Source: Chloroflexota bacterium | Lineage (GTDB): Bacteria > Chloroflexota > Dehalococcoidia > E44-bin15 | Assembly (NCBI GenBank): GCA_015222405.1 | Contig: JADFVG010000057.1 | Span: 1-46,341 of the forward strand | DNA length: 46,341 nucleotides | Reading direction: 5' to 3' | In this document: positions 447-45,571 of the stretch, piece after piece | Position numbering within the stretch: the first letter of the stretch is position 1 | Layout of the letters: each line of letters opens with the position of its first letter | The notes under the pieces: generated by a model | What the model was told of the DNA's origin: nothing | Databases searched by the model: none | What the model saw: only the letters and a program-made list of their open reading frames with translations | Program-made: the position numbers and the translations under genes

Positions 447-1109
447 GTGGCGGTAGGCGGCAACCGCTTTCCGCATGCCAAATACTACCACACTGTTTCC
501 ATGTTGTCAATACCCCTCTGCGTTCCCGTCCAATTAACAATATGCCCAAATTGCCGCTCCAATTAAAGAATGGGCTGGACAACGTTGTAGCATCCTGCCC
601 GCTCCAACTCTGAGCTTCTAGTTTTCAAAATGGCATAGTTGCCTAGGCCTACGTTAAAGGGTGCAAAGGCTATTCCCTATATCAAGAGTCAGGCCTGACA
701 TATAGGCTAGAAGGGCAAAGTATCCGGATATTGCCTTTAACAGGGCCTATGGTCTTCCCTGATCTTTGCTTGGGGGGTTCTTGTTAAGGAGAATTGGCGG
801 CCGACCATATTTGGTATTTGCCGCATCTCTCAGGTAACAATCGTCCAGAATGTGCAATGCAATAACAATAAATAGACGCGGTTACCGTGACATGCCCTTT
901 ACCCTGCCCTTTGGTCTACTCGGCAAGGGTCGTTGATTGCACATTTTGACGCATTGTGCAACGCCCCTAGCTGGTTGGAGTTGGTCGTTTCACTAGTCGA
1001 CTAATCCACCCACGGTACGCAGATCTGCTATAATAGGGATAGCTTAGACTTGATCGCATTATTGAAAGATCGGCCTTCAAATTGCTGACCGGGGAGGGCG
1101 TTCATAAAC

Positions 1110-1208
1110 ATGGCACAGGTACTACGAAGCAAAAACCTGGCTACCAAATTTCAAATCTTGGTGGAGATAGCCGCAGGACAGCCCGACCGGATCTTCAAGA
1201 GGGGGTGA
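1110..1208 (+). pseudogene. 32-codon ORF resembling the N-terminus of a winged-helix regulator; possible 5' remnant of a decayed gene
   Basis: ATG at 1110 with GGGGAGGG about 11 nt upstream. Peptide MAQVLRSKNLATKFQILVEIAAGQPDRIFKRG ends at TGA 1206-1208. From memory, KNLATKFQILVEIA resembles N-termini of HTH+CBS regulators. No downstream frame continues the similarity. Confidence 0.2.
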
Positions 1209-2102
1209 GCGGAGAATGCAGCTGCCAGTAAGCCGAAGGGACAACCAGATGTCCTGACTAGGGCTTGCTGGCTCCTTGTGGCGGGACTTCGGACGGGTCA
1301 GAGTAAGGCCAAGGCGTTGATAAAGCCGGAGGCAGGCAAGGCTATTGCTGCTCATCGCCCGCCCCCGGCAGCACACTGCATGGATTGGCTACCAATGCGC
1401 AGAGCGTGGGCTTGTTGGCCTGCCACGATCTCTATGGGGAAGAATTTGGGGCTAAGAGAGGTTGTTCCAAGAGCACTTGGGCCACGCCAGCTTCAATACT
1501 ACGGCGAAGTACCGAGAAGTTGCCGGGGAAGAGCATCGGGAGTGGTACGAGAGGCTGCGGGAAAAAGGAGAGGCGAGTGGTTGAACCTTTGAGGCCAACG
1601 AGGGGCGGTCTCCCTCAGGGGAGTGAGGGCCCCTAGATTACTGTTGACGGGCTGTAGGACAAGGTATCTCCGCCCACGGTAGCGAGAGGGTCTCTCGGGA
1701 ACAGCCACTTTATCAGAATATCCATGTCCCCTTGCTGACGCCTGACCCATATTGTCCCCTGGGCATCCAAGGCAATGTGGTCTACGGGCAAAAGGACGAT
1801 GGCACCTCTCCAGGCCCTAGTCAGCGGTGCCGCTAAGGTACCTCTTAAGACCATTGCCACTGCTTTTTCGACGTATGCCCCAACATCTACTATGCCTGTC
1901 TTAAAGACTGCGTGGAAGCTATAAGGAACGCCTTGCGCATGATACGGTTCGCGATGCCACCGGGGCTGGGGCGCACCGCCGTTGACAGGACTCGTCTCCA
2001 TGTTTAGACTCTTACATTAGAGATCGCTAGGTGCATTGGTCTCACGATTGAGGACGAAATTGTAAATTCCCAGTTGTGTAAGCTGAGAAAGGAGAAATAG
2101 AT

Positions 2103-3275
2103 ATGGACTTTAGGTATAGCCCAGAAGACGAAGCCTTTAGAAAGGAGGTCAGAGACTGGATTAAAGAAAACCTACCTGAAAGCTGGGCCACTGAGCAAGA
2201 AGCTCTCGGGATCAGTGAGGATAGCTTCCAAATGGCACTAGAGTGGCAAAAGCGATTATATAAACGGGGATGGGTAGGCCTAACCTGGCCCAAGGAGTAC
2301 GGCGGTGGCGGCGGCACACTGATGCAACAGGTCATTCTGAGCGAAGAAATGGCAAAGGCTCGGGCACCAGGGATTGCCAACACTCTTGGTGTGGGCATGG
2401 CAGGCCCCACTATCTTGAGCTTCGGCACCGAGGAACAGAAGAAGCAGTTCATCCCCAAGATACTGTCTGGAGAGGAGATATGGTGTCAGGGATTCTCAGA
2501 GCCGGACGCAGGCTCCGATTTGGCTAATCTTAAGGCACGCGCCATCAGGGATGGAGACTACTATGTGGTCAATGGCCAGAAGGTATGGTCCACGTTCGCT
2601 CAATATGGCGACCGGTGCCTGCTGCTGGTGAGAACTGACCCTGACGTCTTGCCCAAACATCGCGGGATCACATACCTGCTGATGGATATGAAGACTCCGG
2701 GAATCGAGGTTAAGCCGCTGAAGCAAATGACCGGCGACTCTGAATTCAATGAGATGTTCTTGGACAACGTGCGGGTGCCGGTATCGAACCGACTTGGTGA
2801 AGAGAACCGAGGCTGGTATGTGGCTATGGGCACCTTGGCCTTTGAAAGAGCGGGAATGGGACAGGCGATAATGTTCAAACAGGTATTAAATGAAATATTT
2901 AGATTGGCGGCAAAAACTAAACGAAACGGCATTCCGGCGATAAAAGATTCCACCATTCGGCAGAGACTGGCTCAATGTGCCATCGAGTGCGAGATTATGA
3001 GGCTCAACAGCTATCGAAGTTTGTCCACATCGCTGAAGGGGGGGGGCCCAGGGCCGGAAGAGATGTTCAGCAAGCTTTTCTGGAGCGAGATGAATCAACG
3101 AATGACCGAGTTGGCGGCGCAGATCCTGGGAATTGATTCTGTGATAGAAGGCGAGGGGGAAGCTCAACTCTGGCAATACCGTTTCTTGCGGTCAAGAGGT
3201 AACACACTTGAGCAGGGCAGCTCGGAAATCCTAAGGAACGTTATCGGTGAAAGAGTTCTGGGCATTCCCAGATAA
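2103..3275 (+). CDS. acyl-CoA dehydrogenase family protein (390 aa)
   Basis: Full-length ORF with GAAAGGAG upstream. Typical ACAD strings: EWQKRLYKRGWVGLTWPKEYGG, CQGFSEPDAGSD, YVVNGQKVW, C-terminal EQGSSEILRNVIGERVLG. Confidence 0.9.
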   Translation: MDFRYSPEDEAFRKEVRDWIKENLPESWATEQEALGISEDSFQMALEWQKRLYKRGWVGLTWPKEYGGGGGTLMQQVILSEEMAKARAPGIANTLGVGMAGPTILSFGTEEQKKQFIPKILSGEEIWCQGFSEPDAGSDLANLKARAIRDGDYYVVNGQKVWSTFAQYGDRCLLLVRTDPDVLPKHRGITYLLMDMKTPGIEVKPLKQMTGDSEFNEMFLDNVRVPVSNRLGEENRGWYVAMGTLAFERAGMGQAIMFKQVLNEIFRLAAKTKRNGIPAIKDSTIRQRLAQCAIECEIMRLNSYRSLSTSLKGGGPGPEEMFSKLFWSEMNQRMTELAAQILGIDSVIEGEGEAQLWQYRFLRSRGNTLEQGSSEILRNVIGERVLGIPR

Positions 3276-3294
3276 CGGAAAGGAGATAGCGGCA

Positions 3295-4446
3295 GTGGAA
3301 TTCACGCTTAATGAAGAACAGCAAATGCTGAAGGGAATCGCCCGTGATTTCTTGGAGAATAGATGTCCCAAGGCCCATGTTCGCGACATGCTGACCGATG
3401 AAAAGGGATACTCCCCGGAGCTGTGGCAAGATATGGCTGAGCTAGGCTGGCAGGGGCTGATGCTACCCGAGGAATATGGCGGCACCGGCGGCGACTTTGT
3501 CGATATGGTAGTGCTTATCGAGGAAATGGGCAGGGCATTGTTACCCGGTCCTTTCATTCCCACAGTGGTCTATGGTGGAGTGGCAATACTGCAGGCAGGC
3601 ACCAGTGAGAAGAAAAACGAACTTCTGCCTCGGATAGCTCAGGGAGAGCTGAGCTTGACCCTCGCCTTGCAAGAGTCATCAGAGCGCTTTGATGCTGAGG
3701 GAGTCGCGGCAGAAGCTGTGGAAAAGGAGGATCACTATATCTTGAGCGGCACCAAGATCCTTGTTCCCTATGCCCATGTAGCTGATTACATCCTCTGTGT
3801 TTGCAGAAGTAGAAGCAGCAGCGATGCAGAGGATGGCATCAGCCTCTTTCTCGTGGATGCCGAGGGCGAGGGAATTTCCTGCATCACCAGGACTACTTTC
3901 GACGGCAGGAAGCTATGCGACGTGAAGCTGGGCGAGGTGAAGGTGTCGAAGGCAAACCTGCTTGGCGAACCCCATGGCTGCTGGCCCCTGGTCAAGAGAC
4001 TGGTAGACCACGGCTCTGTGGCTATGTGTGCCGAGGCTATTGGTGGTGCCCAAATGGCGATGGAAATGAGCATCAGCTACGCCAAAGAACGAATACAGTT
4101 CGGCAGGCCCATAGGTACCAACCAGGCAATAAAACATAAGTGCGCCAATATGTTCGTAGATGTCGAATGCGGCCGGTCTATTATGTATTGGGCAGCTTGG
4201 GCTGTGGATGAGGGTGTACCAGAGGCTTCGCTGGCTGTTCCAATGGCCAAGTCATGGTGTTGCGACACTTATCGTCGAGTAGCGGCGGATTCGATTCAGG
4301 TACATGGTGGTATCGGTTTCACCTGGGATCATGATATCCCCCTCTACTTTAAGCGGGCGAAAACTCTGGAATATACTTTCGGGGACTGCGATTACCAACG
4401 GGAAATAGTTGTCCGAGAGCTAGAAAGGCAGTTGGCCTCAGGCTAG
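3295..4446 (+). CDS. acyl-CoA dehydrogenase family protein, second subunit-like copy
   Basis: ACAD-like strings: LNEEQQMLKG, ELGWQGLMLPEEYGG, IQVHGGIGFTWDHDIPLYFKRAK. I moved the start from the track ATG 3247 to GTG 3295: AGGAG lies 9 nt upstream, which removes the overlap with the previous gene (stop at 3275). Confidence 0.85.
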   Translation: MEFTLNEEQQMLKGIARDFLENRCPKAHVRDMLTDEKGYSPELWQDMAELGWQGLMLPEEYGGTGGDFVDMVVLIEEMGRALLPGPFIPTVVYGGVAILQAGTSEKKNELLPRIAQGELSLTLALQESSERFDAEGVAAEAVEKEDHYILSGTKILVPYAHVADYILCVCRSRSSSDAEDGISLFLVDAEGEGISCITRTTFDGRKLCDVKLGEVKVSKANLLGEPHGCWPLVKRLVDHGSVAMCAEAIGGAQMAMEMSISYAKERIQFGRPIGTNQAIKHKCANMFVDVECGRSIMYWAAWAVDEGVPEASLAVPMAKSWCCDTYRRVAADSIQVHGGIGFTWDHDIPLYFKRAKTLEYTFGDCDYQREIVVRELERQLASG

Positions 4447-4763
4447 GTTTCGCGGCGTTGCCGGAAGGATGCACGCGGCATGCTGGTCTCGTAGGTTATT
4501 ACGATGGTTATTGTTTCGCTTCTTGCCGGCTGGATTTCATATAGAATTGAGCTGAGACTGGTTGAATATGATCCCTGTTTCAGTGTAGCATTGGTAATGA
4601 GTTCTACTTCGCCAGATTACAGGCTAATTATCTAAATTTATCAGGTCTGGATAACTTCTGGCAAGATGAATGTTTTCAACATGTTATGCCCTAGTTCGAC
4701 AAAGTAGAATTGGGGCATACACAGAAAACGGCATAAGTCGCGTTTATTCCTTAGGAGGAGACA

Positions 4764-6974
4764 ATGAGTTCTGAAGAGATGACAAGTGGGGAGACAAAGA
4801 TCGTCAGGACCACGACTGCGTTCGACTGCGGTGGACGTTGCCCGCTTAGGCTTCATGTTAAGGATGGCAGGATCATCAGGGTCGAGGGCGACGACGCCCA
4901 GGAGCCAGAACAGCTAAGGGCCTGCTTGAGGTGTCGGGCCTATCGGCAGGAGGTCTATCACCCAGACCGCCTCAAATACCCCTTGAAAAGGATTGGGGCC
5001 AAGGGGGAAGGCAAGTTCGAACGCATTTCATGGGATGAAGCCTTGGAAACAATAGTCGGGGAGCTCAAACGAGTTAAGGACACCTATGGTAACCCGAGCA
5101 TTTTTTTGATGGGTGGTGGTGGGTATCTGGGTGCTCTCCATAGCGGCATCAGGGCCGCGGCTAAACTGCTCTCCATGTTCGGAGGTTACACCACCAGCTA
5201 TGGAAACGTTTCATCCGAAGGCTCTGTATGGGCGGTGATGGCCCAGTACGGCTCGGTCATGGTCGGCCACAGCCGGGAGGACTTTCTCAACTCCAAGTTG
5301 ATCATTATGTGGGGCTGGGATCCGGCGAGGATGATTTCGGGCACAAACACCACGTATCATCTCATCAGGGCTAAGGAAGCAGGGGTCAGGATTATCTCTA
5401 TTGACCCCAGGTACCATGATTCCGCCGCAATCATGGCCGACCAGTGGATACCGATCAGGCCCGGCACTGATACGGCCATGATGGTGAGCATGGCCTATGT
5501 GATGATTAAAGAAGGTCTCCATGATCAGGAGTTCTTGGACAAGTATACTGTCGGGTTCGACAAGTTCAGAGATTACGTTTTAGGCATTGAGGACGGGGTT
5601 GAGAAGACACCAGCCTGGGCTGAGGCGATTACCGGGGTTCCGGCGTCAACGATTGAGCAGCTGGCCAGGGAATATGCAACCACTAAACCCGCAGCCCTGA
5701 TGGACTGCCAAGGGCCAGCGCGCAGCGCCATGGGGGAGCAGTACAATCGCTGTGCCATGACCCTGACAGCCATGACCGGAAACATCGGCCGCCATGGTGG
5801 AAACGCAGCGGGTGGCCTGATGGGTATACCCATAGGGCACATGTTCCGCTCTTCCGGAATACCCGGTATAAGAAACCCTGTCGAGGCGGGTGGGCCTTCA
5901 GTTCGAGGCACCCTCGACTTACGGCTTCGCCTAGTTCAAAGGGTTCACATCAACAAGATATTTGACGCAATCCTAGAAGGAAAGGCTGGAGGATATCCAG
6001 CAGACATTAAGCTGGCGTGGTGCATTGCTGGCAACCCCTTGAATCAGCTCGGAAATAGCAATAAAGCCGCCCGGGCGCTAGAGGGTCTTGAGTTTTTCAT
6101 CGTTTCGGAGCTATTTATGAACCCCACAGCCAGATTTGCGGACATCGTACTGCCGGTAACTAGTGCCGCAGAGCGCAACGATCTCACCCGGCCCTGGCCC
6201 TCCGGCCCTTACTACACCTTTGTCAACAAGGCCATTGAACCATTGGGAGAATGCAAATCGGATCTTGAGATCGCCTGTGAGCTGGCGGAAAAGCTGGGCT
6301 TCAGCGACTTCAATCCTCTTTCGGAGGAGGAGTGGCTCAAGGCATTCGTCGAACAGAACCCAGAGACCGGCGAGCAGATCAAAGACTATGATAAATTCAG
6401 ACGCGAAGGCATCCACCGGGTCAAGCTTGCCGAACCCATCGTCGCCTTCAAGGAGGAGATTGAGAGCCCGGAAAACCACCCTTTTGCAACCCCTTCAGGA
6501 AAGATAGAAATCTTTTCTCAGCGGGCGGCAGACATCGATAACCCGCTCTGCCCACCTATTCCAAAATATGTAAGCACCTGGGAAGATCGGAACGACCCGC
6601 TGATAGAAAAGTATCCGCTCCAGCTTCTCTCTCCCCATCCCAAGAACAGGGTGCATTCCCATTTAAATGTTGCTTGGCTCAGGGAAATAGAACCCCATCG
6701 GGCCTGGATTAATCCAGTAGATGCGGAGCCCAGGGGGATTAAGGACGGCGATGAAATCTATGTTTTCAATGATCGAGGCAAGTTAGCCATCACGGCCTGG
6801 GTGACGGAGCGCATAATTCCCGGAGTGATCTGTATCTTTGAAGGTGCCTGGTATAATCCTGATAAAGAAGGCATCGACCGTGGCGGCTGCGTAAATGTTC
6901 TGACTAATGATGCCTACTCAGAAGGTGGAGCATCAGCGTTAAATACCGTACTAGTTCAGGTGAGTAAGGCCTGA
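4764..6974 (+). CDS. molybdopterin (bis-MGD) oxidoreductase catalytic subunit, DMSO-reductase superfamily, no Tat signal
   Basis: 736-aa ORF with AGGAGGAG upstream. The N-terminal MopB Fe-S region is DCGGRC-X27-CLRC. Family-typical strings: IIMWGWDP, GTDTAMM, and a C-terminal molybdopterin-binding barrel (INPVDAEPRGIKDGDEIYVFNDRG). There is no RR twin-arginine motif. Confidence 0.9.
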   Translation: MSSEEMTSGETKIVRTTTAFDCGGRCPLRLHVKDGRIIRVEGDDAQEPEQLRACLRCRAYRQEVYHPDRLKYPLKRIGAKGEGKFERISWDEALETIVGELKRVKDTYGNPSIFLMGGGGYLGALHSGIRAAAKLLSMFGGYTTSYGNVSSEGSVWAVMAQYGSVMVGHSREDFLNSKLIIMWGWDPARMISGTNTTYHLIRAKEAGVRIISIDPRYHDSAAIMADQWIPIRPGTDTAMMVSMAYVMIKEGLHDQEFLDKYTVGFDKFRDYVLGIEDGVEKTPAWAEAITGVPASTIEQLAREYATTKPAALMDCQGPARSAMGEQYNRCAMTLTAMTGNIGRHGGNAAGGLMGIPIGHMFRSSGIPGIRNPVEAGGPSVRGTLDLRLRLVQRVHINKIFDAILEGKAGGYPADIKLAWCIAGNPLNQLGNSNKAARALEGLEFFIVSELFMNPTARFADIVLPVTSAAERNDLTRPWPSGPYYTFVNKAIEPLGECKSDLEIACELAEKLGFSDFNPLSEEEWLKAFVEQNPETGEQIKDYDKFRREGIHRVKLAEPIVAFKEEIESPENHPFATPSGKIEIFSQRAADIDNPLCPPIPKYVSTWEDRNDPLIEKYPLQLLSPHPKNRVHSHLNVAWLREIEPHRAWINPVDAEPRGIKDGDEIYVFNDRGKLAITAWVTERIIPGVICIFEGAWYNPDKEGIDRGGCVNVLTNDAYSEGGASALNTVLVQVSKA

Positions 6975-6987
6975 GGGAGGATAGACC

Positions 6988-7554
6988 ATGCAGATTGGGT
7001 TCTATTTTGATCAGACCCGTTGCACAGGATGCGGCGCTTGTCAAGTAGCCTGTAAGGATTGGCATGACCTGCCGGCTGGACCCGAAAATTGGATCCGAGT
7101 CCTGTACACTGAAAAAGGGAAATTCCCGGATGTCTTTGTTAGCTACGTGGTTGCACCATGCTACCAATGCCTTGACCCCGTTTGTATTCCGGCCTGTCCA
7201 GTCGATGCTATCTCGAAAAGGGATGGGGACGGGATCGTGGTTGTGGATGGCGAAGTATGCTTGGGTAACAAGGAGTGTGACGTCAAATGCCTGAAAGCCT
7301 GCCCCTATAACGCCCCCCAGTTTGGGCCGGAGCTTGGTGCCAAAATGCGTATGTGCAACTTCTGCCTGGACAGGTGGTCAGATAACAAGCTGCCCATTTG
7401 TGTAGAGGCATGCCCCACGAGGGCCCTTGACGCTGGCCCCTTAGGTGAACTTAAGGCCAAATACGGCGACATCCAAGAGGCCGAAGGCTTTGCTTATTCC
7501 AACAGGACTAAACCGGCCGTTATCTTTAAACCAAAGCGTCTAAAGACCACCTAG
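6988..7554 (+). CDS. 4Fe-4S dicluster electron-transfer subunit (DmsB-like)
   Basis: CTGCGACQVACKD, CYQC..CIPACP, CLKACP and CNFC...CVEACP cysteine clusters. Starts 14 nt after the catalytic subunit, with GGGAGG as RBS. Confidence 0.9.
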   Translation: MQIGFYFDQTRCTGCGACQVACKDWHDLPAGPENWIRVLYTEKGKFPDVFVSYVVAPCYQCLDPVCIPACPVDAISKRDGDGIVVVDGEVCLGNKECDVKCLKACPYNAPQFGPELGAKMRMCNFCLDRWSDNKLPICVEACPTRALDAGPLGELKAKYGDIQEAEGFAYSNRTKPAVIFKPKRLKTT

Positions 7555-7583
7555 TAGCACGTGTTTGGCAATCCTGTTCGATG

Positions 7584-8108
7584 TCAGCAGGAATGGGACA
7601 GTACACAATTCATCGTTTTGTTGGGTCTGGAGTCAAAAGAGCCTGCCAACAAATCTAGGTGGTGACGCAGGGCGAAGGCGCTACCTGCTTGCCCTTTCTT
7701 AAGCCGGGCTGTTTCTGCCTGCAACTTCGCTGTTCTTTCTTCTGACTTAGCGATGCTTAGGTCGATTACGGCCATTATGAATCGCTCTGCTGCTATCCTC
7801 CCTGATTCCGACATTGGAATCCGTGGTTCAGATGGGGTGAATTCCCCCGATGCCAACCTCTCCTGATAGATTTCGTAGCAGCGATGCACTAACGAAGAGT
7901 TCAAGTCATCGGGTGTTAGACCCGAGTAGTCAATCACTGGGAGGAACCCATCGCTGCGCATTTTCCAAAGCATGCCCCTCCCAGTTGCTTGACCCATGTG
8001 GCGAAACCTTATGTGCCCGTTCAGCCCTTGGGTGGTGCGCATGAAAGCACCACAGATGGGGCATTGGACTGGCTTCCTAGTGTAGTGCGGTATCTCGGGT
8101 GATGGCAT
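7584..8108 (-). CDS. hypothetical protein with an N-terminal classical C2H2-type zinc finger and a coiled-coil-like C-terminus
   Basis: 174-aa ORF. CPICGAFMRTTQGLNGHIRFRH fits C-X2-C-X12-H-X4-H, with a hydrophobic F and L in near-consensus positions. The rest has no recognisable domain. Confidence 0.6.
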   Translation of the reverse strand: MPSPEIPHYTRKPVQCPICGAFMRTTQGLNGHIRFRHMGQATGRGMLWKMRSDGFLPVIDYSGLTPDDLNSSLVHRCYEIYQERLASGEFTPSEPRIPMSESGRIAAERFIMAVIDLSIAKSEERTAKLQAETARLKKGQAGSAFALRHHLDLLAGSFDSRPNKTMNCVLSHSC

Positions 8109-8444
8109 GTTACCCCTCTGATACCAATGTGAGCGAGTATAGTCACTGTAGTCAACAACATTCCGCTACTTATCGATGGCCTGCTCTTCATTCACCCGAT
8201 TGCTGTCCTGCTAGGACGTCTCGACGCCGGGGCAGCGGAGCTGGAGACGCTGCCCCGGTATCCGTATTGCTGAGTGCTAGTGCTGTAGGTATAGGTGTAT
8301 TCTGTCAAGAGGTTGACATGGAACGCCAATATGAGGCATCTTATAGGTACATCTGAGCCGCTTATTGTCGCGCCGATGATTTTCAAGAAAGGAGGAGAGA
8401 AGATGAAACGAGGAGCCACTGCTTTAACACGTCGCTCAGCTTTG

Positions 8445-8490
8445 TGGCGTCCCTGGAGGGATTCGAACCCACGACCCACTGCTTAGAAGG
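8445..8490 (-). repeat. 46-nt exact duplicate of the 3' half of tRNA-Arg(UCU), att-like direct repeat
   Basis: 8445-8490 is identical to 10352-10397 (CCA end through the anticodon loop plus one stem base). Identity ends abruptly on both sides. Confidence 0.9.
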
Positions 8491-8755
8491 TAGGCGACAC
8501 GTTTTGTGTTCTACGGTTACGATTTCGTATCTGTCTTCGCCCAAAACCCTGGGCAAAAACCAGCGAAGCAGTTGGTCTTTTTTCTAAATATCACCCCCTT
8601 CCTTTACGGTGAGGTACTCGCTTTCCTCCCTGCTCCCTGCTATGAGTTGAGGTTTGGCTCAGTGCGTGGTACAATTTATCAAAATTTGGGGTTTGAAAGA
8701 TGCTTGTTGGCCGCTTCTAATTTCCAAATGAGTTTTGATTATTGGGGGTGCAACA

Positions 8756-10351: not shown

Positions 10352-10427
<76 letters not shown>

Positions 10428-39539: not shown

Positions 39540-39609
39540 TGTCTTGTTCCCTCCTAACGTAAGAATTCCATGCGCCAGAGTAGCACAGCAGCGTACTGAT
39601 GTCCAGATG

Positions 39610-39647
39610 TTGTACTCGTCCAGTACATTAGTGACACATCACCCCCC
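39610..39647. repeat. 38-bp repeat, copy B (IS terminal inverted repeat relic)
   Basis: TTGTACTCGTCCAGTACATTAGTGACACATCACCCCCC is the exact reverse complement of 33807-33844. It contains the stop codon of the transposase relic. Confidence 0.9.
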
Positions 39648-39790
39648 CCTTTGTTTTTGATTCCACCGCTCCAGGAGCTGGAGTGGAGTTAAGTAGCCCA
39701 GAGCCTGATGTGGCCTTATCGTGGGTCTGCTCCCATCTCAACAGCTCACCCTCTAACCCAGCAATGTTAGAGGATTCATATTGCTCGCCG
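39639..39790 (-). pseudogene. C-terminal relic of an rve (DDE integrase-core) transposase
   Basis: The minus strand reads RPHQALGYLTPLQLLERWNQKQRGG-stop (39716 down to 39639). This is the conserved RPH.ALGY.TP tail of IS3/IS481-type transposases. Upstream, ELLRWEQTHDK is in a different frame and stop codons follow, so only a frameshifted stub remains. Confidence 0.5.
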
Positions 39791-39945
39791 TGGCCCTGAT
39801 GCGGGCAATATCATTGGCACGGCATAGAAATTCGCCCCACTTTCGGTTATAATAGCCTGCGGTCATCGATGATTAGCACAGGCTATCCTGCAACCCGAGC
39901 AAAACTATGACATTCTTGGGATCGCTTCCTGCTGGCTTTAGTTGG

Positions 39946-39984
39946 GGAGGGGTGACCGAGCGGTTTATGGTGGCGGTCTTGAAA
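39946..39984 (+). pseudogene. 5' half of tRNA-Ser (anticodon UGA), truncated right after the anticodon loop
   Basis: GGAGGGG TG ACCG AGCGGTTTA TGGT G GCGGT CTTGAAA gives the acceptor strand, a class-II type D arm, a stem strand and a loop with TGA. The following TTCGA cannot pair with GCGGT. No variable arm, T arm or 3' acceptor strand is present downstream. Confidence 0.75.
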
Positions 39985-40103
39985 TTCGAAACCCTTTGTT
40001 CCACCCTATGCTGTTAGCTATGATTCTGTGCCTCTGTGTTGGACTGTCGCGGTGATTTCGTATCTGGGCATACCATCTTGTGCCGGGGGGTGCTCAGGAG
40101 TTC

Positions 40104-40123
40104 GTTAGCAAAATGTTAGCAAA
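40104..40123 (+). repeat. GTTAGCAAA tandem direct repeat (2 copies, 11-nt period)
   Basis: GTTAGCAAA at 40104-40112 and 40115-40123. The two copies flank the ATG of the XRE-like ORF. Confidence 0.6.
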
Positions 40124-40328
40124 TCCAGAGGAGGATCGGCTCCAATTATACCAGCTATCCCAAGAAGAGTTTGTCGGCAAAGTGTAGGCAAACGTCAGCA
40201 CGCTTCAGAGGATGTCACTAGCAACAACAACTACAGCCCAGTCACTGCTTGCTAAACCACGCCGGATAATCAAAGGTCTACGAGGAGAATTCTACTACAC
40301 GGATGGCGGTCATCAACTCCTTCTTTGA
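40113..40328 (+). pseudogene. XRE/Cro-like HTH ORF interrupted by an in-frame TAG
   Basis: MLANPEEDRLQLYQLSQEEFVGKV-TAG(40185)-ANVSTLQRMS...stop 40326-40328. LSQEEF..K..x..VST..R fits the helix-turn-helix of XRE-family repressors, and the stop sits at the turn position. Confidence 0.3.
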
Positions 40329-40475
40329 TTGATTATCACCCAACTTCTATATCATATCATTTTTATCCATTATTTTTGAAATAGAATTCTTGCATTTTTT
40401 GTATCTATTTAGATGGGGGGCCCCTCACCCCTCTACTAGCTACGATTTCGGGGGAGGAATTCCCCGTTATAAGCG

Positions 40476-40532
40476 GGTAAACCATATATGGTAAACGATA
40501 AGGTAAACGCTATGGTAAACGTCATGGTAAAC
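40476..40532 (+). repeat. five direct GGTAAAC repeats with about 12-nt period (iteron or arm-site-like array)
   Basis: GGTAAAC at 40476, 40490, 40502, 40514 and 40526. The last three are ATGGTAAAC. Confidence 0.85.
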
Positions 40533-40719
40533 CCAGAAAAGCTCACATAGGTCATAGGCTCAAGCGATTGAATCCTTTATACAAGGGCCTCCTTGATTTC
40601 ACAGCTTTGTCTTTTGTTCAAAAGAGTAGAAGGCCTCAACTTCGTGCTCTGCTCCACGGGGGAATCAACGGGGGAAAGGGTCAGGCTATGATCGTTCCCG
40701 CGCTACCGGGTGCCTGGAC

Positions 40720-40911
40720 CTAGTGTTCCTTTATCCACTGAATCAGTTCTTCTTTCAGAAAGACCCGCTTTTTTCCAATTTTGTGTGAGGGCAAACCCTC
40801 CTTCATCAGTTTGTACAGCGTTTGATGGCTTACCCCAAGGAATTCTTGAGCCTCCTGAAAGGTTAGAAAAATTCGCTCGACATCCCGTGAGCGCGCACTT
40901 TCTTCTGCCAC
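40720..40911 (-). CDS. excisionase / MerR-type HTH DNA-binding protein (63 aa)
   Basis: LTFQEAQEFLGVSHQTLYKLMKEGLPSHKIGKKRVFLKEELIQWI is the HTH_17 excisionase-family pattern. I set the start at GTG 40911, with AAGGAGG 7 nt upstream; the track ATG at 40986 adds an implausible hydrophobic leader. Confidence 0.75.
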   Translation of the reverse strand: MAEESARSRDVERIFLTFQEAQEFLGVSHQTLYKLMKEGLPSHKIGKKRVFLKEELIQWIKEH

Positions 40912-40989
40912 CTGCTGGCCTCCTTGAACTAGAATGTATATTAGCCACTTGCTACTAATTAGGCACAACTGGACGGAAATAGACACAGC

Positions 40990-41018
40990 TTGACAAATAT
41001 CGTATGTTTATTTACGAT
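40990..41018 (+). promoter_or_regulatory. sigma70-type promoter candidate for the 41106 / 41956 genes
   Basis: TTGACA (40990-40995), 17-nt spacer, TACGAT (41013-41018), in the divergent intergenic region. Confidence 0.4.
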
Positions 41019-41105
41019 TCAGACATAAAGAATGGAAATGTCCCCCAAGAAAGCAACTTGATGCACCAAGCGAAGTGAGCGCGGGAAAGGCGCGGATAAA
41101 CGATC

Positions 41106-41657
41106 ATGAACGTGTCCAGCCATCGGATTTGGGGTAGTCTGCAGGATAGTCTTCGAGACCTCATTCTTGAGGGCGTCGAGCGTGGATGGATGTCTGCAAG
41201 GTCATGGGACGACCTGCAAAGGGAAATTGCCAATCAGTTCAAGCAGCAGCTTGCGCCTTCGATAGTCCGTGAGAACGTCCCACTATCCGTACTAGGAGTT
41301 GCTGGTTCTAACGCCCAGATAGATATCGTATTGGGTAACCTAGCGGAGAAAGGATTGGGTGGGTTCCTGATTCACATAAGTGGGCACACGTTGCCTAGGC
41401 ATGAAAAGGAACTGCTGGAAATCATGGCTGTATCGCTCGCGGATGCTAGGTTTGCATACGGTGTGCTTGTTGTATGCTCCGATAACCGGCTTCGATTGGA
41501 GGGAAGAGCTACCTCTTTTGCGTATTGTGGCGGGCCGTTAATACGACTAGCGGCGCCTATTTTGGGTCGTTGCAACCTGCTTGGCCTCCTCGTAGTCGGG
41601 CTGCCCACGCCACCATACACCCCGGGGGTGAGTTTGACCCCTCACCAGAGGGCGTGA
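41106..41657 (+). CDS. hypothetical protein (183 aa), orphan partner of the MCM-like ATPase
   Basis: Intact ORF, no clear RBS, no recognised domain. IDIVLGN...LIHISGH...HEKELLE could be a degenerate nuclease-like core, but this is not demonstrable by eye. Confidence 0.5.
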   Translation: MNVSSHRIWGSLQDSLRDLILEGVERGWMSARSWDDLQREIANQFKQQLAPSIVRENVPLSVLGVAGSNAQIDIVLGNLAEKGLGGFLIHISGHTLPRHEKELLEIMAVSLADARFAYGVLVVCSDNRLRLEGRATSFAYCGGPLIRLAAPILGRCNLLGLLVVGLPTPPYTPGVSLTPHQRA

Positions 41658-41955
41658 CCGGGACGGAGCATGGCGTTAGCGATTGGCCTCAGCGCTGGAT
41701 CGGCAAGTAGGCCGAGCAGAGGAGAACACGTGGAAGGCTAGCTCCCCTAATGCTAAACTTGAACGCACTCTTTTCCTGAAAATATCTTGGCTTTCACGTG
41801 GTATCGTCCTATCTGAACTTGTTTGCCGGAGTTACTATGCCCCATGATCATGATAAGGAACGGAGCAGTTTCAAGTCCTTGGAGATCTAGGGTTGACCAG
41901 GAAAAAGATCTCCATTGGTCGTACCCTCTCACATTGTTACTAGGAGGTGAGCAAG

Positions 41956-42867
41956 ATGATCCTTAACCAAAAGCAGCGGGACGCGTTATTCAACATCCTT
42001 GAGTACGAGCAGACCCACGACCCCGAAGAGTTCAGCTTGGGGTGGAGTTGGACTGATGTCCGGGTTGCGCCAGCCACCTTAAACAATCTACTACTAAAAG
42101 GACTGCTAGAGGAGAAATTCCACTCAAATAGCTATAGAGGATTGCCACTTACTGAACTGGGTCGTGAGCAGGCAAACCTTCTGGAAGAGCCAGCAGAGGC
42201 TTATGAGAAGCCTCTGGATGAAAGCCTGACGCTGCCCAATGACATGTTCCAGGACATCATAGGCCATGATGATGTGAAGGAACTCTTGACGGCTGCACTT
42301 CTTGTGGAAAAGCCTGTGCACGTGTTGTTGGCAGGGCCACCGGCACTCGCCAAATCTTTGTTTCTCTGGGGTATAGAGCGAGTATGCGGTGAGCAAGCAG
42401 TATGGCTTGTGGGCTCGGCGACAAGCAAGGCGGGGCTGTGGGACCTAGTAGCAGAACGCGAGCCACGGATTCTACTTATAGATGAGCTCGATAAGATGAA
42501 CGCTGCTGACACCGCAGCCCTACTCAGCTTGATGGAAGGCGGAAGGCTAGTGCGGGCCAAGAAAGGTAGGGCGCTTGACGTTACTGTTCCCATCAAGGTG
42601 GTAGCAGCCACAAACCAAGTGGCCAAGTTGTCTCCAGAACTGATGTCCAGATTTGCCATACGAAAGCTGGAAGCCTACGACACAGTGCAATATCGCACAG
42701 TGGTTAAAGGGGTATTGATACGTCGTGAGAATGTCAGCCCTGAGCTTGCCGAGGAGATAGCCCGTAAGCTTGAGGGGAGGACTCAGGATGTAAGAGATGC
42801 GGTAAGAGTGGCTCGTTTGAGCCCACAGTTAGGGATTGATAAGACGATCCGCTTGCTTCTGCCTTGA
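41956..42867 (+). CDS. wHTH-AAA+ ATPase with MCM-clade motifs (mini-MCM-like)
   Basis: AGGAGG lies 8 nt before ATG 41956. Motifs: IIGHDDVKELL, Walker A GPPALAKS, GSATSKAGL, Walker B LLIDELDKM, LMEGG...RAKKG, sensor-1 VVAATN, Arg-finger LMSRF. See findings. Confidence 0.75.
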   Translation: MILNQKQRDALFNILEYEQTHDPEEFSLGWSWTDVRVAPATLNNLLLKGLLEEKFHSNSYRGLPLTELGREQANLLEEPAEAYEKPLDESLTLPNDMFQDIIGHDDVKELLTAALLVEKPVHVLLAGPPALAKSLFLWGIERVCGEQAVWLVGSATSKAGLWDLVAEREPRILLIDELDKMNAADTAALLSLMEGGRLVRAKKGRALDVTVPIKVVAATNQVAKLSPELMSRFAIRKLEAYDTVQYRTVVKGVLIRRENVSPELAEEIARKLEGRTQDVRDAVRVARLSPQLGIDKTIRLLLP

Positions 42868-42969
42868 CGGATTTTGCGCTCACCGAAACGGTATCCGAAG
42901 CTGAGCACCAATCTCTAGATTCAGTTGGTACTCTTTCCGCTTCTGATAATTGTGTTGGCGGTTGGGTAA

Positions 42970-43000
42970 TAGAGTCACAATCCGATGGATTGTGACTCTA
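42970..43000 (+). terminator. 14-bp perfect stem-loop, candidate terminator after the MCM-like gene
   Basis: TAGAGTCACAATCC gat GGATTGTGACTCTA, followed by TATTT. It lies about 100 nt after the stop at 42867. Confidence 0.5.
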
Positions 43001-43117
43001 TATTTGCACGCTGGAGGCAAAGGCGATCAAAAAAGTCAACAAAGCTAATGACAAGCGCAGCAAAGGTGTGGTACAATCACAGCCGCTAGCAAAGAATGTT
43101 GCAGGAGGTAAGGGAAG

Positions 43118-43618
43118 ATGGCGATCATTGATACCCTGAAAAGCTCTGAGCTCTTTGAGGGCTTGGAGACAGGCCATTTGGAAAAGGTCTCGGTTCTGTG
43201 CCGTGGGGGCTCCTACAAGGAAGGGATGATGGTCTTCAAGGAGGGGGATGAAGCGGCGGAGTTCTACGTTCTGACAGGCGGCAGGGTGGCGCTGGAGATG
43301 GAGGTGTGCCCTGTGCCCGACCGTCCCGCCATACCCACGGCGGTGGAGGTGGTCACCAAAGGCGACTGCTTTGGTTGGTCGGCCCTCGTTGAGCCTCACG
43401 TATACACGTTGTCTGCCCGGTGCATGACCAACTGCACAGTGCTAGCCATCAAGGGTGACATGCTTCGCAAGGCTATGGCTGATGACCCTAGTCTGGGCTA
43501 TCAAGCGATGAAAAAACTGACCCAACTTGTCTCCCTCCGGCTTGCGCATACCCGGCTCCGCCTCATCAGCGGGCTCGGTCTGCTCCTGCTAGGCAAGGAG
43601 CTAGAGTTATCTGAGTAA
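43118..43618 (+). CDS. stand-alone cyclic-nucleotide-binding (CAP effector) domain protein
   Basis: LFEGLETGHLEKV...G..VFKEGDEAAEFYVL..G.V.......GDCFGWSAL is the cNMP-binding beta-barrel pattern. At 166 aa it has no DNA-binding or other output domain. An extended -10 promoter candidate (TGgTACAAT) sits at 43069-43077. Confidence 0.8.
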   Translation: MAIIDTLKSSELFEGLETGHLEKVSVLCRGGSYKEGMMVFKEGDEAAEFYVLTGGRVALEMEVCPVPDRPAIPTAVEVVTKGDCFGWSALVEPHVYTLSARCMTNCTVLAIKGDMLRKAMADDPSLGYQAMKKLTQLVSLRLAHTRLRLISGLGLLLLGKELELSE

Positions 43619-44119
43619 TCCGTTTTCCAGATGGAACGCAAGCACTCTCAGTTTTCGAAGAGGAAATTACCCGGACAAGCCCCCAAGAGGTTCCGGGAAG
43701 CTGTCTGGGAGGAGAAACAAGGCCAGCACCAAAATGTTTACAGTAGGTAAGAGTTAAAGCCGGCTTTATAGGGTATCAGGATTATCAAAGAGGCTGGGTA
43801 TCGTCCTGGGAAGAGCCAGCCTCTTCGTTAGGGATTGCACAACGTGGCTAATTGTCTAGTCCGGTAATGGCTACTTCCAGAAACGCTCTTATCTCAACGG
43901 ATAGCATCTTACAGCTTCCTGATAAGATCGCGCCGCTTCTGCTCGTCACCTACTACCTGCTGCTTCAGCCTTTTCCAAGTATTGGGACAGTCTGTGAAGG
44001 TAACCTCAACTACTTGATGAATGGCCTGGTCAATCTGCTTCCTATTGCCAGGAGCAACCTCAATACTGGCCTCATCTAGAATATCCTTTATATGACGAAA
44101 AATGGCAGGACATGAAATA

Positions 44120-45571
44120 TTACCTTATCGGCAATGGTTGCCCGAGAAAGGAGTCTACCCACCAGAAGATGTCGCGTTTCTGGATCGATTTGCGGAGTCT
44201 TCGCATTCGTGATCGCCGTTCATCCCTACTCATATTATATGCTCGATGGATTGCGTTGGCTACGCCTTCAATATCATACGGGTTCACCAGTAGCGAATTT
44301 CTACGCAACTGAGTTGCTGCACCGGCAAATTCACTAAGTATTAGCACACCGTTTGTATCTACCTTAGCCGCACAATACTCCTTTGCTACCAAGTTCATTC
44401 CATCTTTCAGGGGTGTGACCAGAGCGATCTCAGCAGCACGATAATATGCGAGAAGCTCAGTGCGTTCCAGATTCCGAAACATGTACTGAATCGGTATCCA
44501 GCCCGGCTGGGTAAATTTGCCATTAATCTCACTCACTAGGCCCTCGATCTCGGTTTTTAGCTCCCGATACTCCGGTATATCCTCTCGACTAGGCACCACA
44601 ATTTGAACCAGCGTTACCTTGCCCTGTAGATCGTCGAAACGCTCCAGGGTATTTCTGAACGCTTGCAATTTCTCTGGAATACCCTTGGAGTAATCCAAAC
44701 GATCTACACCCAGGATGATCTGGCAGTTGGGTATGGCCTCATATAGCAGACTGGCTCTTTCCGCTACGCTCTTGGCTGCCGCCTGTCGGGCAAACTCATT
44801 GAAGTCTATGCTAATTGGGAAAACGCCAACCCTGATTTCTCGGTTTGGCACAGTGATTGTAGATACTTGCCTTCTAGTGTCGTAACGGATGCTCTTGATC
44901 AGGGCTTCGACGCAATGGATGAAGTTGTTTCTGTCACGTGTGGTCTGAAAACCAATGAGGTCGTACTCCAACAAGGCTCGCAGAATCTGCAACCGCCACG
45001 GCAGTTTAATGAAGATATCGAGTGGGGGAAAGGGGATGTGGAGGAAGAATCCGATCTTGCACTCCAGTTCCATGCCACGCAATTCCTTGGCCACGAGCGT
45101 GAGGTGGTAGTCGTGAACCCAAATGTAATCATTCATTCCAGTGTTCTGTGCTATCACCTGCGCGAATTTACAATTGACCGCTTGGTACATATTCCAATAA
45201 GCGGGATCGAAATTGCAGCGCGATTGCATATCGTGGAAAAGTGGCCATATGATTTCGTTGGAGAATCCGAAATAGTATTGATTCGCCTCTTCCGCAGTTA
45301 GTTTGACTGGCTTAAGTATATATCCTGCATCCTGGCTCCCTATGGCCACTAGCCCATCCAGGTCAACCTCCTCCACCGTTCCCGGCCAGCCAATCCATAG
45401 GCCTCCCCGGTCACGCAAGACCGGAGCCAGGGCAGTAACCAATCCACCTGAGCCGGGCTGAACCTGCCAGTCCCCCAGATCCCCTTTTGTTAGGACGATG
45501 GGCAGGCGATTTGAAACAATCACAAGCCGATCCACCCTTAAGTTATTGCTTTGGTCTCTCGGGTGCGACAT
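44120..45571 (-). CDS. otsA: alpha,alpha-trehalose-phosphate synthase (GT20)
   Basis: [32 protein letters not shown], and the C-terminal LVNPYD motif. Confidence 0.9.

Follow-up and report, generated by a model that had tools for sequence, protein, structure and literature searches.

Genes and features at the locus

We analyzed a 46,341-nucleotide (nt) stretch of DNA from a Chloroflexota bacterium (class Dehalococcoidia; assembly GCA_015222405.1, contig JADFVG010000057.1, forward strand), called the window below, and here we discuss a small AAA+ ATPase encoded in it, a candidate replication initiator of a mobile element. The region contains three genes: one for an 88-amino-acid (aa) helix-turn-helix (HTH) protein on the minus strand (40720–40986), an open reading frame (ORF) of 183 aa on the plus strand (41106–41657), and the ATPase ORF, also on the plus strand, which ends at 42867. 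To the left of the three genes lies an origin-like block, in which an AT-rich leader is followed by five short direct repeats (iterons). Related loci on other contigs are referred to by number (L001, L002 and so on).

The ATPase ORF encodes 306 aa when read from GTG 41947 and 303 aa when read from ATG 41956. The latter is the likely start, giving a 303-aa product, because the sequence AGGAGG (41942–41947) lies 8 nt 5' of it and almost all homologs are 303 aa long; residue numbers below are counted from this ATG. The ATPase gene is under strong purifying selection, with a ratio of nonsynonymous to synonymous substitution rates (dN/dS) of 0.10–0.14 against four relatives, and the 183-aa gene is also under purifying selection (dN/dS about 0.31). 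A first-pass annotation, made from the sequence alone, had described the 303-aa and 183-aa ORFs and quoted a set of motifs, all of which are present in the translation. Within the ATPase, we distinguish a winged-helix-like domain (residues 1–76; 41956–42183, plus strand), delimited by an AlphaFold2 model, alignment and profile search, from an AAA+ core with a four-helix lid (residues 96–303; 42241–42867, plus strand), delimited by profile, fold and alignment evidence.

Family affinity and predicted structure of the ATPase

The core carries the motifs IIGHDDVKELL, GPPALAKS, GSATSKAGL, LLIDELDKM, AALLSLMEGGRLVRAKKG, VVAATN and LMSRF. Homologs are numerous: the homolog search gave more than 1,400 matches, 284 clusters were obtained at E ≤ 1e-30 when 1.84 billion representative proteins were searched exhaustively, and an architecture of about 300–330 aa is common to many of the best 150 homologs. 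In a diverse sample of 66 family members (33–58% identity), Walker A K133, sensor-1 N220, Arg finger R232 and sensor-2 R280 were invariant, and Walker B D176 and E177 were conserved at no less than 90%. Such conservation in the alignment is what an active, oligomeric AAA+ enzyme would show.

We investigated which AAA+ group the family resembles, and the answers pointed in two directions. The top Pfam family was the MCM (minichromosome maintenance) P-loop domain PF00493 (E = 1.3e-10; 41.2 bits against a cut-off of 23.3), matched over profile positions 20–174 of 224. The generic AAA family and RuvB_N ranked below it, RuvB_N only marginally above threshold (27.5 bits against 27). Across the 66-member sample, the Pfam MCM family was matched by 62 members and RuvB_N by 6. 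When the profile of the 66 members was searched against the Protein Data Bank (PDB), an archaeal MCM came first (5e-19), ahead of RuvB (2e-12). Conversely, the single window sequence and its fold were nearest RuvB. NCBIfam ranked RuvB first for the single sequence, at scores far below the model cut-offs (NF000868/TIGR00635; 40 bits against 282 and 31 against 299), and the full-length MCM model NF040949 gave 22 bits against 940. In the single-sequence PDB search, RuvB 7pbl was first (2.4e-11) over the ATPase domain and lid, and MCM2 reached 4e-5. A Foldseek search of the model against the PDB likewise placed RuvB on top (7e-11, at about 30% identity). RFC, NorQ, clamp loaders and Lon came next, and the top 50 included no MCM; a viral fold library returned generic AAA+ matches only (MoxR, RFC and Lon).

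The structural features that set MCM apart are missing from the family. In the profile alignment to archaeal MCM, 16 MCM residues at the position of the helix-2 insert and 13 residues after sensor 1 have no counterpart, and the stretch before Walker A is longer in MCM. In the model, α2 (161–168) runs straight into β3 (172–176, the Walker B strand) without a helix-2 insert, and β5 is followed by four consecutive lid helices (243–301) without an extra helix, after which the chain ends. Sensor-2 R280 lies 48 residues past Arg finger R232, a spacing that is much longer in MCM, and the lid aligns with that of RuvB. Sequence and model agree that there is no MCM OB/zinc N-terminal domain, no C-terminal winged helix and no pre-sensor-II insert. 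RuvB-specific features were also lacking: there was no RuvB_C match in the ATPase, and no ruvA or ruvC in the examined neighborhoods. A 20-residue insert between α3 and β4 (194–213) aligns with the pre-sensor-1 hairpin regions of both MCM and RuvB. The ATPase is MCM-like, but not an MCM: it has MCM-type motifs on a RuvB-like chassis, and it does not belong structurally to the MCM clade, which is defined by the pre-sensor-II insert, because the N-terminal domain, the helix-2 insert and the pre-sensor-II insert are all absent. The first-pass annotation had assigned it to that clade, an assignment that holds for the motifs, Pfam and the family profile and fails on structure. Its remarks that the OB/zinc domain is lacking and that the spacer between Walker A and Walker B is short were both correct, the latter corresponding to the 16 missing residues.

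The AlphaFold2 model of the ATPase was built from 39 homologs, with a mean predicted local distance difference test score (pLDDT) of 84. In it, the N-terminal domain consists of helices at 5–20, 23–26, 32–35 and 39–47, short strands within 51–65, and a helix at 67–75. This helix-helix-helix-hairpin order gives a winged-helix-like topology, with residues 39–47 as the putative recognition helix and 51–65 as the putative wing. The isolated domain had no Pfam match. When its profile was searched against the PDB, a winged-helix regulator of the HxlR type was best (E = 0.054), over the recognition helix and wing. Residues 1–76 are therefore likely, but not proven, to form a winged helix: the topology anticipated by the first-pass annotation is present in the model, and the HxlR-type match falls short of proof. 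A linker modeled as disordered joins this domain to a canonical α/β AAA+ domain.

The origin-like block and the mobile element

The origin-like leader (40315–40475, plus strand) comprises an AT-rich stretch (about 40326–40401) and then a block of G-runs and C-runs (about 40411–40458), and is homologous to L002 (8990–9152), L001 and L085. It is followed by five direct GGTAAAC iterons (40476–40532, plus strand) with start-to-start spacings of 14, 12, 12 and 12 nt. All five lie within 57 nt, and no other copy occurs in the window. Tandem Repeats Finder reported a period of 12 with 4.6 copies, and in 200 first-order Markov random sequences of window composition the maximum number of copies of any 7-mer within 60 nt was 3. 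When metagenomic contigs were scanned with the 21-mer GGTAAACCATATATGGTANAC, the block recurred in at least 120 of them. Among the matches listed, 83 distinct copies show a constant order of AT-rich stretch, G-run/C-run block and direct repeats. The iterons mostly number 4–6, usually five in direct orientation with a spacing of 14 and then 12 nt, and the GC fraction is 0.29 at −150 to −75 and 0.54 at −75 to −25 from the first repeat. In 82 of these 83 copies there were no inverted iterons beyond the AT-rich stretch.

Two further candidates were rejected. The arms of a supposedly conserved stem-loop in the G/C block pair in L002, whereas those of the window do not. A scan of IMG/VR for three spaced GGTAAAC copies returned 117 contigs, mostly giant viruses, which we attribute to chance or unrelated tandem repeats because none of the 117 has the ATPase or the specific 21-mer.

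The block is closely linked to the ATPase, as had been proposed for the iterons at the outset. In the same set of listed matches, an ATPase of this family lies within 4 kb of the repeats in 55 of the 73 evaluable contigs, and the family is the commonest neighbor (59 of 124 loci). The spacing is stereotyped: in 37 of these 55 contigs, about 300 bp separate the end of the ATPase gene from the first repeat downstream of it, with gene and repeats on the same strand. A second order also recurs and is that of the window, namely origin, HTH gene, variable gene (here the nuclease-fold gene discussed below) and ATPase, in which the array is upstream of the ATPase. Window 40315–40537 is homologous to DNA downstream of the ATPase in L001 and L002, and to DNA upstream of the set of HTH, 183-aa and ATPase genes in L085. 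By blastn, window 41943–42921 corresponds to L002 7994–8973 and window 40315–40533 to L002 8990–9210. The ATPase 3' flank of the window (42868–42921, plus strand; 54 nt) thus matches the L002 segment that runs from the ATPase stop to 17 nt before the origin-like block, so that this flank and the start of the block (window 40315), which are far apart in the window, are separated by 17 nt in L002. On these alignments, the window order is a circular permutation of the order "ATPase then origin".

More distant lineages have other repeats in a similar place. Relatives with 60–66% identity carry their own arrays just past the ATPase gene or past the next small gene, 60–400 nt downstream of the ATPase. 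These arrays consist of about 7 copies of ATTCTCC in L005, preceded by a G/C palindrome and AT-rich DNA, 7 copies of GGTTACAT in both orientations in L006, 6 copies of GCATATCT in L014, and 4–5 copies of TATCATAGC in L016; in each of the four, the observed count was reached in 0 of 200 shuffles. Furthermore, the ATPases of L104, L128 and L203, whose genes lie about 1.27 kb upstream of the repeats, are mosaics. Their AAA+ part is 40% identical to that of the window ATPase and their N-terminal domain 55–59%; recognition helix and wing are nearly the same as in the window ATPase, and the GGTAAAC array beside the genes has not changed. This suggests, at the level of sequence comparison, domain-level recombination that keeps the DNA-binding module with its origin. 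Lineage-specific arrays and mosaic ATPases are what would be expected of an initiator with cognate iterons.

Some loci near these arrays have a different composition. Unrelated proteins of 304–328 aa and about 160 aa, without a family match, recur near the GGTAAAC array in L198, L324, L158 and L161, and this pair may be an alternative replication module or cargo. L092 and L205 each have two ATPase paralogs, of which the first precedes the origin block and the second follows the HTH gene and variable-gene slot; this may reflect tandem elements or an internal duplication.

We found several signs that the locus belongs to an integrated element. At 39942–39983 (plus strand), a tRNA-Ser-like 5' half that ends in the anticodon loop (…GGTCTTGAAA) was recognized by eye and is a candidate element junction; ARAGORN and Rfam do not call it. 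The same arrangement, also seen by eye, is present in L004 (3537–3575; anticodon CGA). In L002, the junction to the left of the element carries a fragment (7641–7686) that matches the 3' part of a nearby intact tRNA-Lys(CTT) gene (1788–1860) at 46 of 46 nt, and this fragment likewise ends in the anticodon loop. The 5' halves in the window and L004 have an unusual polarity, and the window has no intact tRNA-Ser. The distance between the attachment (att)-type junction and the repeats is about 490 nt in the window; in L002 it is about 1.5 kb. Tyrosine integrases adjoin the ATPase gene in L092, L128 and L203. The carriage on an integrated element that the first-pass annotation had suspected is supported by these tRNA halves and by the integrases of the relatives. 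By tblastn, no integrase or other element gene family was found in the window; the window copy is thus non-autonomous or a remnant. Most likely, the window holds a copy or remnant, roughly 3 kb long, of a tRNA-integrating Dehalococcoidia element.

The limits of this element can be placed only approximately. A search for flanking att direct repeats gave a weak 13-nt match only (39971–39983 and 40304–40316), which leaves the boundaries undefined. On the left, a conserved non-coding "arm" with the motif GTYRGCAAAATGTYRGCAAA (39946–40116, plus strand) matches L004 3537–3631 and L007 5787–5915 by blastn, was aligned with L002, L004 and L007, and lies directly upstream of the ATPase gene in relatives. 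The GTYRGCAAAATGTYRGCAAA motif is repeated in the window (40104–40126 and 40170–40192) and in L002 (7597–7625 and 7806–7835). These repeats may be a set of recombinase arm-type sites, and their presence on both sides of the L002 tRNA fragment suggests stacked integration remnants. On the right, a perfect hairpin with a 15-bp stem and a 3-nt loop (42969–43001, plus strand) lies 100 nt past the ATPase stop. Having no T-run, it fails a terminator scan; it may mark the right-hand limit of the element or serve as a terminator or a recombination site. Beyond it are the gene of a 166-aa protein with a cyclic-nucleotide-binding domain, which together with its own promoter-like site (43048–43077) takes up 43048–43618, and a trehalose-6-phosphate-synthase-like gene (44120–45571, annotated by eye). 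These genes look like host DNA, which would put the right end of the element between about 42925 and 43040. At the gathering threshold, the sole Rfam match in the window was a tRNA-Arg (10355–10427); at E ≤ 1, Rfam gave nothing over 39560–41100 except one chance miRNA match.

The two remaining genes of the region are divergently oriented. The 88-aa protein belongs to the excisionase-type HTH_17 family (Pfam 5e-13; NCBIfam "excise" domain, 34.5 bits against a cut-off of 28.8) and has a homolog with 90% identity in L086. The intergenic region between the two genes contains a sigma-70-like promoter, TTGACA-17-TACGAT (40990–41018, plus strand), identified by its match to the consensus alone. The 183-aa protein had been regarded at first as an orphan. 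It has 14 homolog clusters and no match in Pfam, NCBIfam or PHROGs. However, its AlphaFold2 model (pLDDT 85; predicted template modeling score 0.84) matches the restriction endonucleases BamHI, OkrAI and BglII in Foldseek (E from 1e-4 to 6e-3; template modeling score 0.5–0.6). D73, E100, K101 and E102 are invariant in its homologs, and we take D73, E100 and E102 to correspond to the catalytic residues of BamHI. The model thus predicts a BamHI-like PD-(D/E)xK fold with a D…E-x-E set, i.e., a putative nuclease encoded by an occasional passenger gene. No methyltransferase ORF was found in 39540–44120, nor in L085, L086, L324 or L325. A solitary nuclease on such a tiny element is unusual; it could be toxic, regulated or element-specific.

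The ATPase family is distributed among Dehalococcoidia elements and proviruses and archaeal elements (Asgard, Nitrososphaeraceae and Aenigmarchaeota). More distant Dehalococcoidales relatives are found in prophage-like elements in which an M78/XRE switch, a Gp3-like directionality factor, replication genes, a J-domain protein and the ATPase follow one another; the replication genes encode either a DUF3854 primase-like protein or a RepO-like and DnaC-like pair. In L009, L011–L015, L017, L022 and L024, each about 12 kb long, a conserved element has ImmA/XRE, Gp3-like, DUF3854 and J-domain genes immediately before the ATPase gene, and its downstream gene block, in which several products have membrane segments, gave no Pfam or PHROG match. 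These Dehalococcoidales elements may represent an undescribed virus group. Repeat clusters also occur inside the 3' part of the DUF3854 gene (L009 5045–5187, L015 4977–5057 and L022 5100–5187), those of L009 forming two inverted sets (four CCTTCAC and four GTGAAGG), and look like a second origin for that replication module.

Archaeal homologs are about 39–40% identical to the window ATPase. In L027 (Nitrososphaeraceae; 3515–6573), the homolog adjoins PolB, a family-B DNA polymerase, and in L025 (Candidatus Borrarchaeum, Asgard; 498–8656) its neighbors in the cluster are the genes of a 580-aa MCM-like protein, of a Cdc48-like ATPase and of a fusion of PCNA with a C2H2 zinc finger. One close homolog (61% identity), with its element, lies on a contig binned as Rhodobacteraceae (L010, PUKW01000078.1). 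All other close relatives are Chloroflexota, and this assignment is probably a binning error rather than a host jump. The family had no representative in 50,697 phage and 72,556 plasmid records, in which true ruvB genes alone matched (25–33% identity), and the 2.9 million contigs of IMG/VR yielded one distant relative (40% identity).

Function of the ATPase and its rival explanations

The domain architecture, the intact catalytic set, the purifying selection, the stereotyped linkage to an origin-like site and the mobile-element context are established. Taking these together, we consider the 303-aa protein to be, more probably than anything else we weighed, a Rep-type replication initiator of small tRNA-integrating Dehalococcoidia elements that acts at its own origin. 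That its nearest relatives are DNA motors, namely MCM by family profile and RuvB by fold, supports this prediction, as do the archaeal homologs beside PolB, PCNA and an MCM-like gene and the published precedent of the SaPI Reps described below. We infer that the winged helix binds DNA and that the protein assembles into a ring, melts the origin and acts as a helicase. The N-terminal winged helix would bind the direct repeats, which are GGTAAAC here and other sequences in diverged relatives, and this binding would gather several protomers beside the AT-rich stretch. The AAA+ domains, in which Walker A, Walker B, sensor 1, Arg finger and sensor 2 are intact, would then form a ring and open the AT-rich DNA in an ATP-driven manner. 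Finally, the ring would either translocate as a self-loaded helicase, as do Rep of the pathogenicity islands of Staphylococcus aureus (SaPIs), Cch, E1 and large T antigen, or hand over to a separate helicase; the self-loading version seems slightly more likely than the initiator-only one.

Several observations weigh against an initiator with cognate iterons. The insert at 194–213 has no strands in the model (pLDDT 64–78), so the pre-sensor-1 hairpin is not modeled as a hairpin, and the predicted fold is generic for AAA+ proteins, with clamp loaders, MoxR and Lon also scoring well. In L135 and L120, the ATPase beside the same GGTAAAC array belongs to a second subfamily (about 34% identity) whose N-terminal domain is different, and in L198 and L324 the array is preceded not by the ATPase but by the unrelated pair of 304 aa and 160 aa. 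The link between the repeats and this N-terminal domain is therefore not exclusive. In addition, L004 has the ATPase gene without an origin-like block, and no repeat array was found past the ATPase in seven prophage-like loci of the DUF3854 type. The prophage-like relatives already have a primase-like protein with a P-loop motif or the RepO-like and DnaC-like pair. Finally, all iterons point the same way and flank the AT-rich stretch on one side only; SaPI origins differ in this.

The repeat block might be a partition, packaging, operator or recombination-arm site and the ATPase the motor or regulator of that process. The strictly one-sided, direct array would suit this, as would its persistence beside differing upstream genes and differing HTH genes, and the G/C block with its repeats could be centromere-like or pac-like. 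We nevertheless consider it unlikely: an AT-rich stretch beside repeats is the classical layout of an origin, the ATPase falls in the MCM/RuvB branch of AAA+ proteins and is not of the ParA, terminase or FtsK type, and the distance of the att-type junction from the repeats is variable (about 490 nt and about 1.5 kb). No capsid or terminase was seen among the examined neighbor families of the small elements, most of which are unannotated. Alternatively, the ATPase might remodel the DNA of the element, as a RuvB-like motor for recombination or branch migration or in some other way, and act on junctions during integration, excision or recombination rather than at an origin, while the repeats serve another protein. 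RuvB is the best match both of the single sequence in the PDB (2.4e-11) and of the fold (7e-11), the JGI label of the family is "RuvB", and in the prophage-like relatives the gene follows a complete replication module. Against this stand the low score for the NCBIfam RuvB equivalog (40 bits against 282), the 6 of 66 members that reach Pfam RuvB_N, and the lack of a RuvB C-terminal domain and of RuvA or RuvC partners in the neighborhood. A junction motor would also leave the fixed spacing to lineage-specific repeat arrays unexplained, and on balance we find it a rather improbable account.

The 183-aa protein and the ATPase could also form a two-gene defense or maintenance module of the McrBC type, i.e., an AAA+ motor with a PD-(D/E)xK nuclease. 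The two genes are adjacent and co-oriented in the window, L085 (where the ATPase is 49% identical), L086 and L325. The 183-aa protein has a predicted restriction-endonuclease fold with its acidic triad intact, and the upstream HTH protein resembles, below cut-off, the HTH of a methylation-associated defense system. However, the 14 clusters of the orphan contrast with the more than 1,400 ATPase matches. By tblastn, neither the 183-aa gene nor the HTH gene is present in 28 other ATPase-holding loci, and the orphan is missing from all 24 other Dehalococcoidia genome loci of the ATPase. It is also absent from the 55 repeat-linked ATPase loci among the matches listed, and among the repeat-bearing contigs listed it occurs only in L198, which lacks the ATPase. 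In L198 and L324, it precedes the unrelated 304-aa and 160-aa pair instead. A defense system is not favored by PADLOC either, which gave a noise-level match for the ATPase (3e-4) and nothing for the 183-aa protein. The first-pass annotation had put forward this pairing, to be abandoned if the two genes showed no conserved linkage elsewhere; the neighborhood survey found none, which essentially refutes it, and we regard it as very improbable. We read the 183-aa gene as nuclease-fold cargo in a variable slot after a divergent HTH promoter. Neither the excisionase-like HTH gene nor the BamHI-like nuclease gene is a partner of the ATPase; both are accessory, as cargo or as regulators.

A stronger version of the initiator prediction deserves mention, although we hold it to be doubtful. 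A winged helix and a stripped MCM-like core of about 300 residues could together be a complete self-loading initiator-helicase, the smallest of the MCM lineage. It would be either a pre-insert form ("proto-MCM") that stands between RuvB and MCM, or an MCM that was radically reduced and moved across domains of life on mobile elements. In either case, the origin, an AT-rich stretch with lineage-specific iterons, could be read directly from sequence.

Significance and comparison with known systems

Dehalococcoidia are abundant in sediments and aquifers and are hard to grow. To our knowledge, they have neither a plasmid replicon nor a genetic tool. With its recognizable origin and more than 100 natural variants, the compact putative initiator gene offers a candidate for a minimal replicon, about 2.6 kb long, on which vectors could be built. 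The family is also a natural minimal construct, with MCM-like motifs and none of the MCM-specific inserts, and it could be used to test which MCM inserts are needed for DNA opening and translocation. Furthermore, it documents a set of small elements whose integration sites lie in tRNA genes, in the region of the anticodon loop, and whose cargo is exchangeable and includes nucleases, HTH regulators and secreted proteins. The significance would rise if the minimal helicase activity or the use as a Dehalococcoidia replicon were demonstrated.

We compared the predicted initiator with four known systems. Orc1/Cdc6 and DnaA-type initiators likewise pair an AAA+ domain with a DNA-binding domain, a winged helix or HTH, for the recognition of repeated origin elements that adjoin an AT-rich unwinding region, and one archaeal homolog of the ATPase clusters with the gene of an MCM-like protein. 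Their domain order is reversed, however, and the window ATPase lacks the initiator-specific motif and has a pre-sensor-1 insert; neither the Orc1/Cdc6 nor the DnaA family was among its profile matches. RuvB shares the compact α/β domain, a pre-sensor-1 insert of similar length, the canonical four-helix lid, the GPPxLxK[ST] P-loop and the G(P/S)xxxKAG loop, and is the best fold and single-sequence PDB match. The window ATPase differs from it in having an N-terminal winged helix, as predicted above, in lacking the RuvB C-terminal domain and nearby RuvA or RuvC, and in scoring far below the equivalog cut-off, and the family as a whole is closer to MCM.

MCM proteins (PF00493) include BcMCM of Bacillus cereus, the classic bacterial prophage MCM (PMC2715239), and MCM-like genes occur beside recombinases in staphylococcal cassette chromosome mec (SCCmec), Thaumarchaeota and pT26-2 plasmids (PMC6563490, PMC6972569). 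They have the closest core by family profile (5e-19) and share the A-K-S Walker A, the IDExDKM Walker B, the AAAN sensor 1 and the SRF Arg finger. Conversely, the window ATPase has no OB/zinc N-terminal domain, helix-2 insert, 13-residue post-sensor-1 loop or C-terminal winged helix, and its lid is in the canonical position without a pre-sensor-II insert.

The closest functional counterparts would be the Reps of SaPIs (Rep1, PriRep5 and Rep2) and Cch and Cch2 of SCCmec. SaPI Reps are AAA+ initiator-helicases whose winged helix reads iterons of 5–6 nt immediately downstream of rep, around an AT-rich region, and SaPI Rep and Cch, described as self-loading helicases, are AAA+ proteins of the superfamily 3 (SF3) or MCM-like type (PMC9371898). 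No significant sequence match to SaPI Rep or Cch was found among the 60 best PDB matches of the ATPase. Their winged helix is C-terminal, whereas that of the window ATPase is N-terminal, and at 303 aa the latter is about half their size and has no extra N-terminal domain. Its iterons are one-sided and all direct, and its helicase activity is predicted. The two nevertheless have in common an AAA+ domain with a winged helix on a small integrative island, an origin of short iterons (5–7 nt) and AT-rich DNA just downstream of the gene, and, in some elements, a recombinase gene nearby (PMC9371898, PMC6972569). We rate the window ATPase as a new MCM-like candidate within a kind that is already known, the initiator ATPases of mobile elements.

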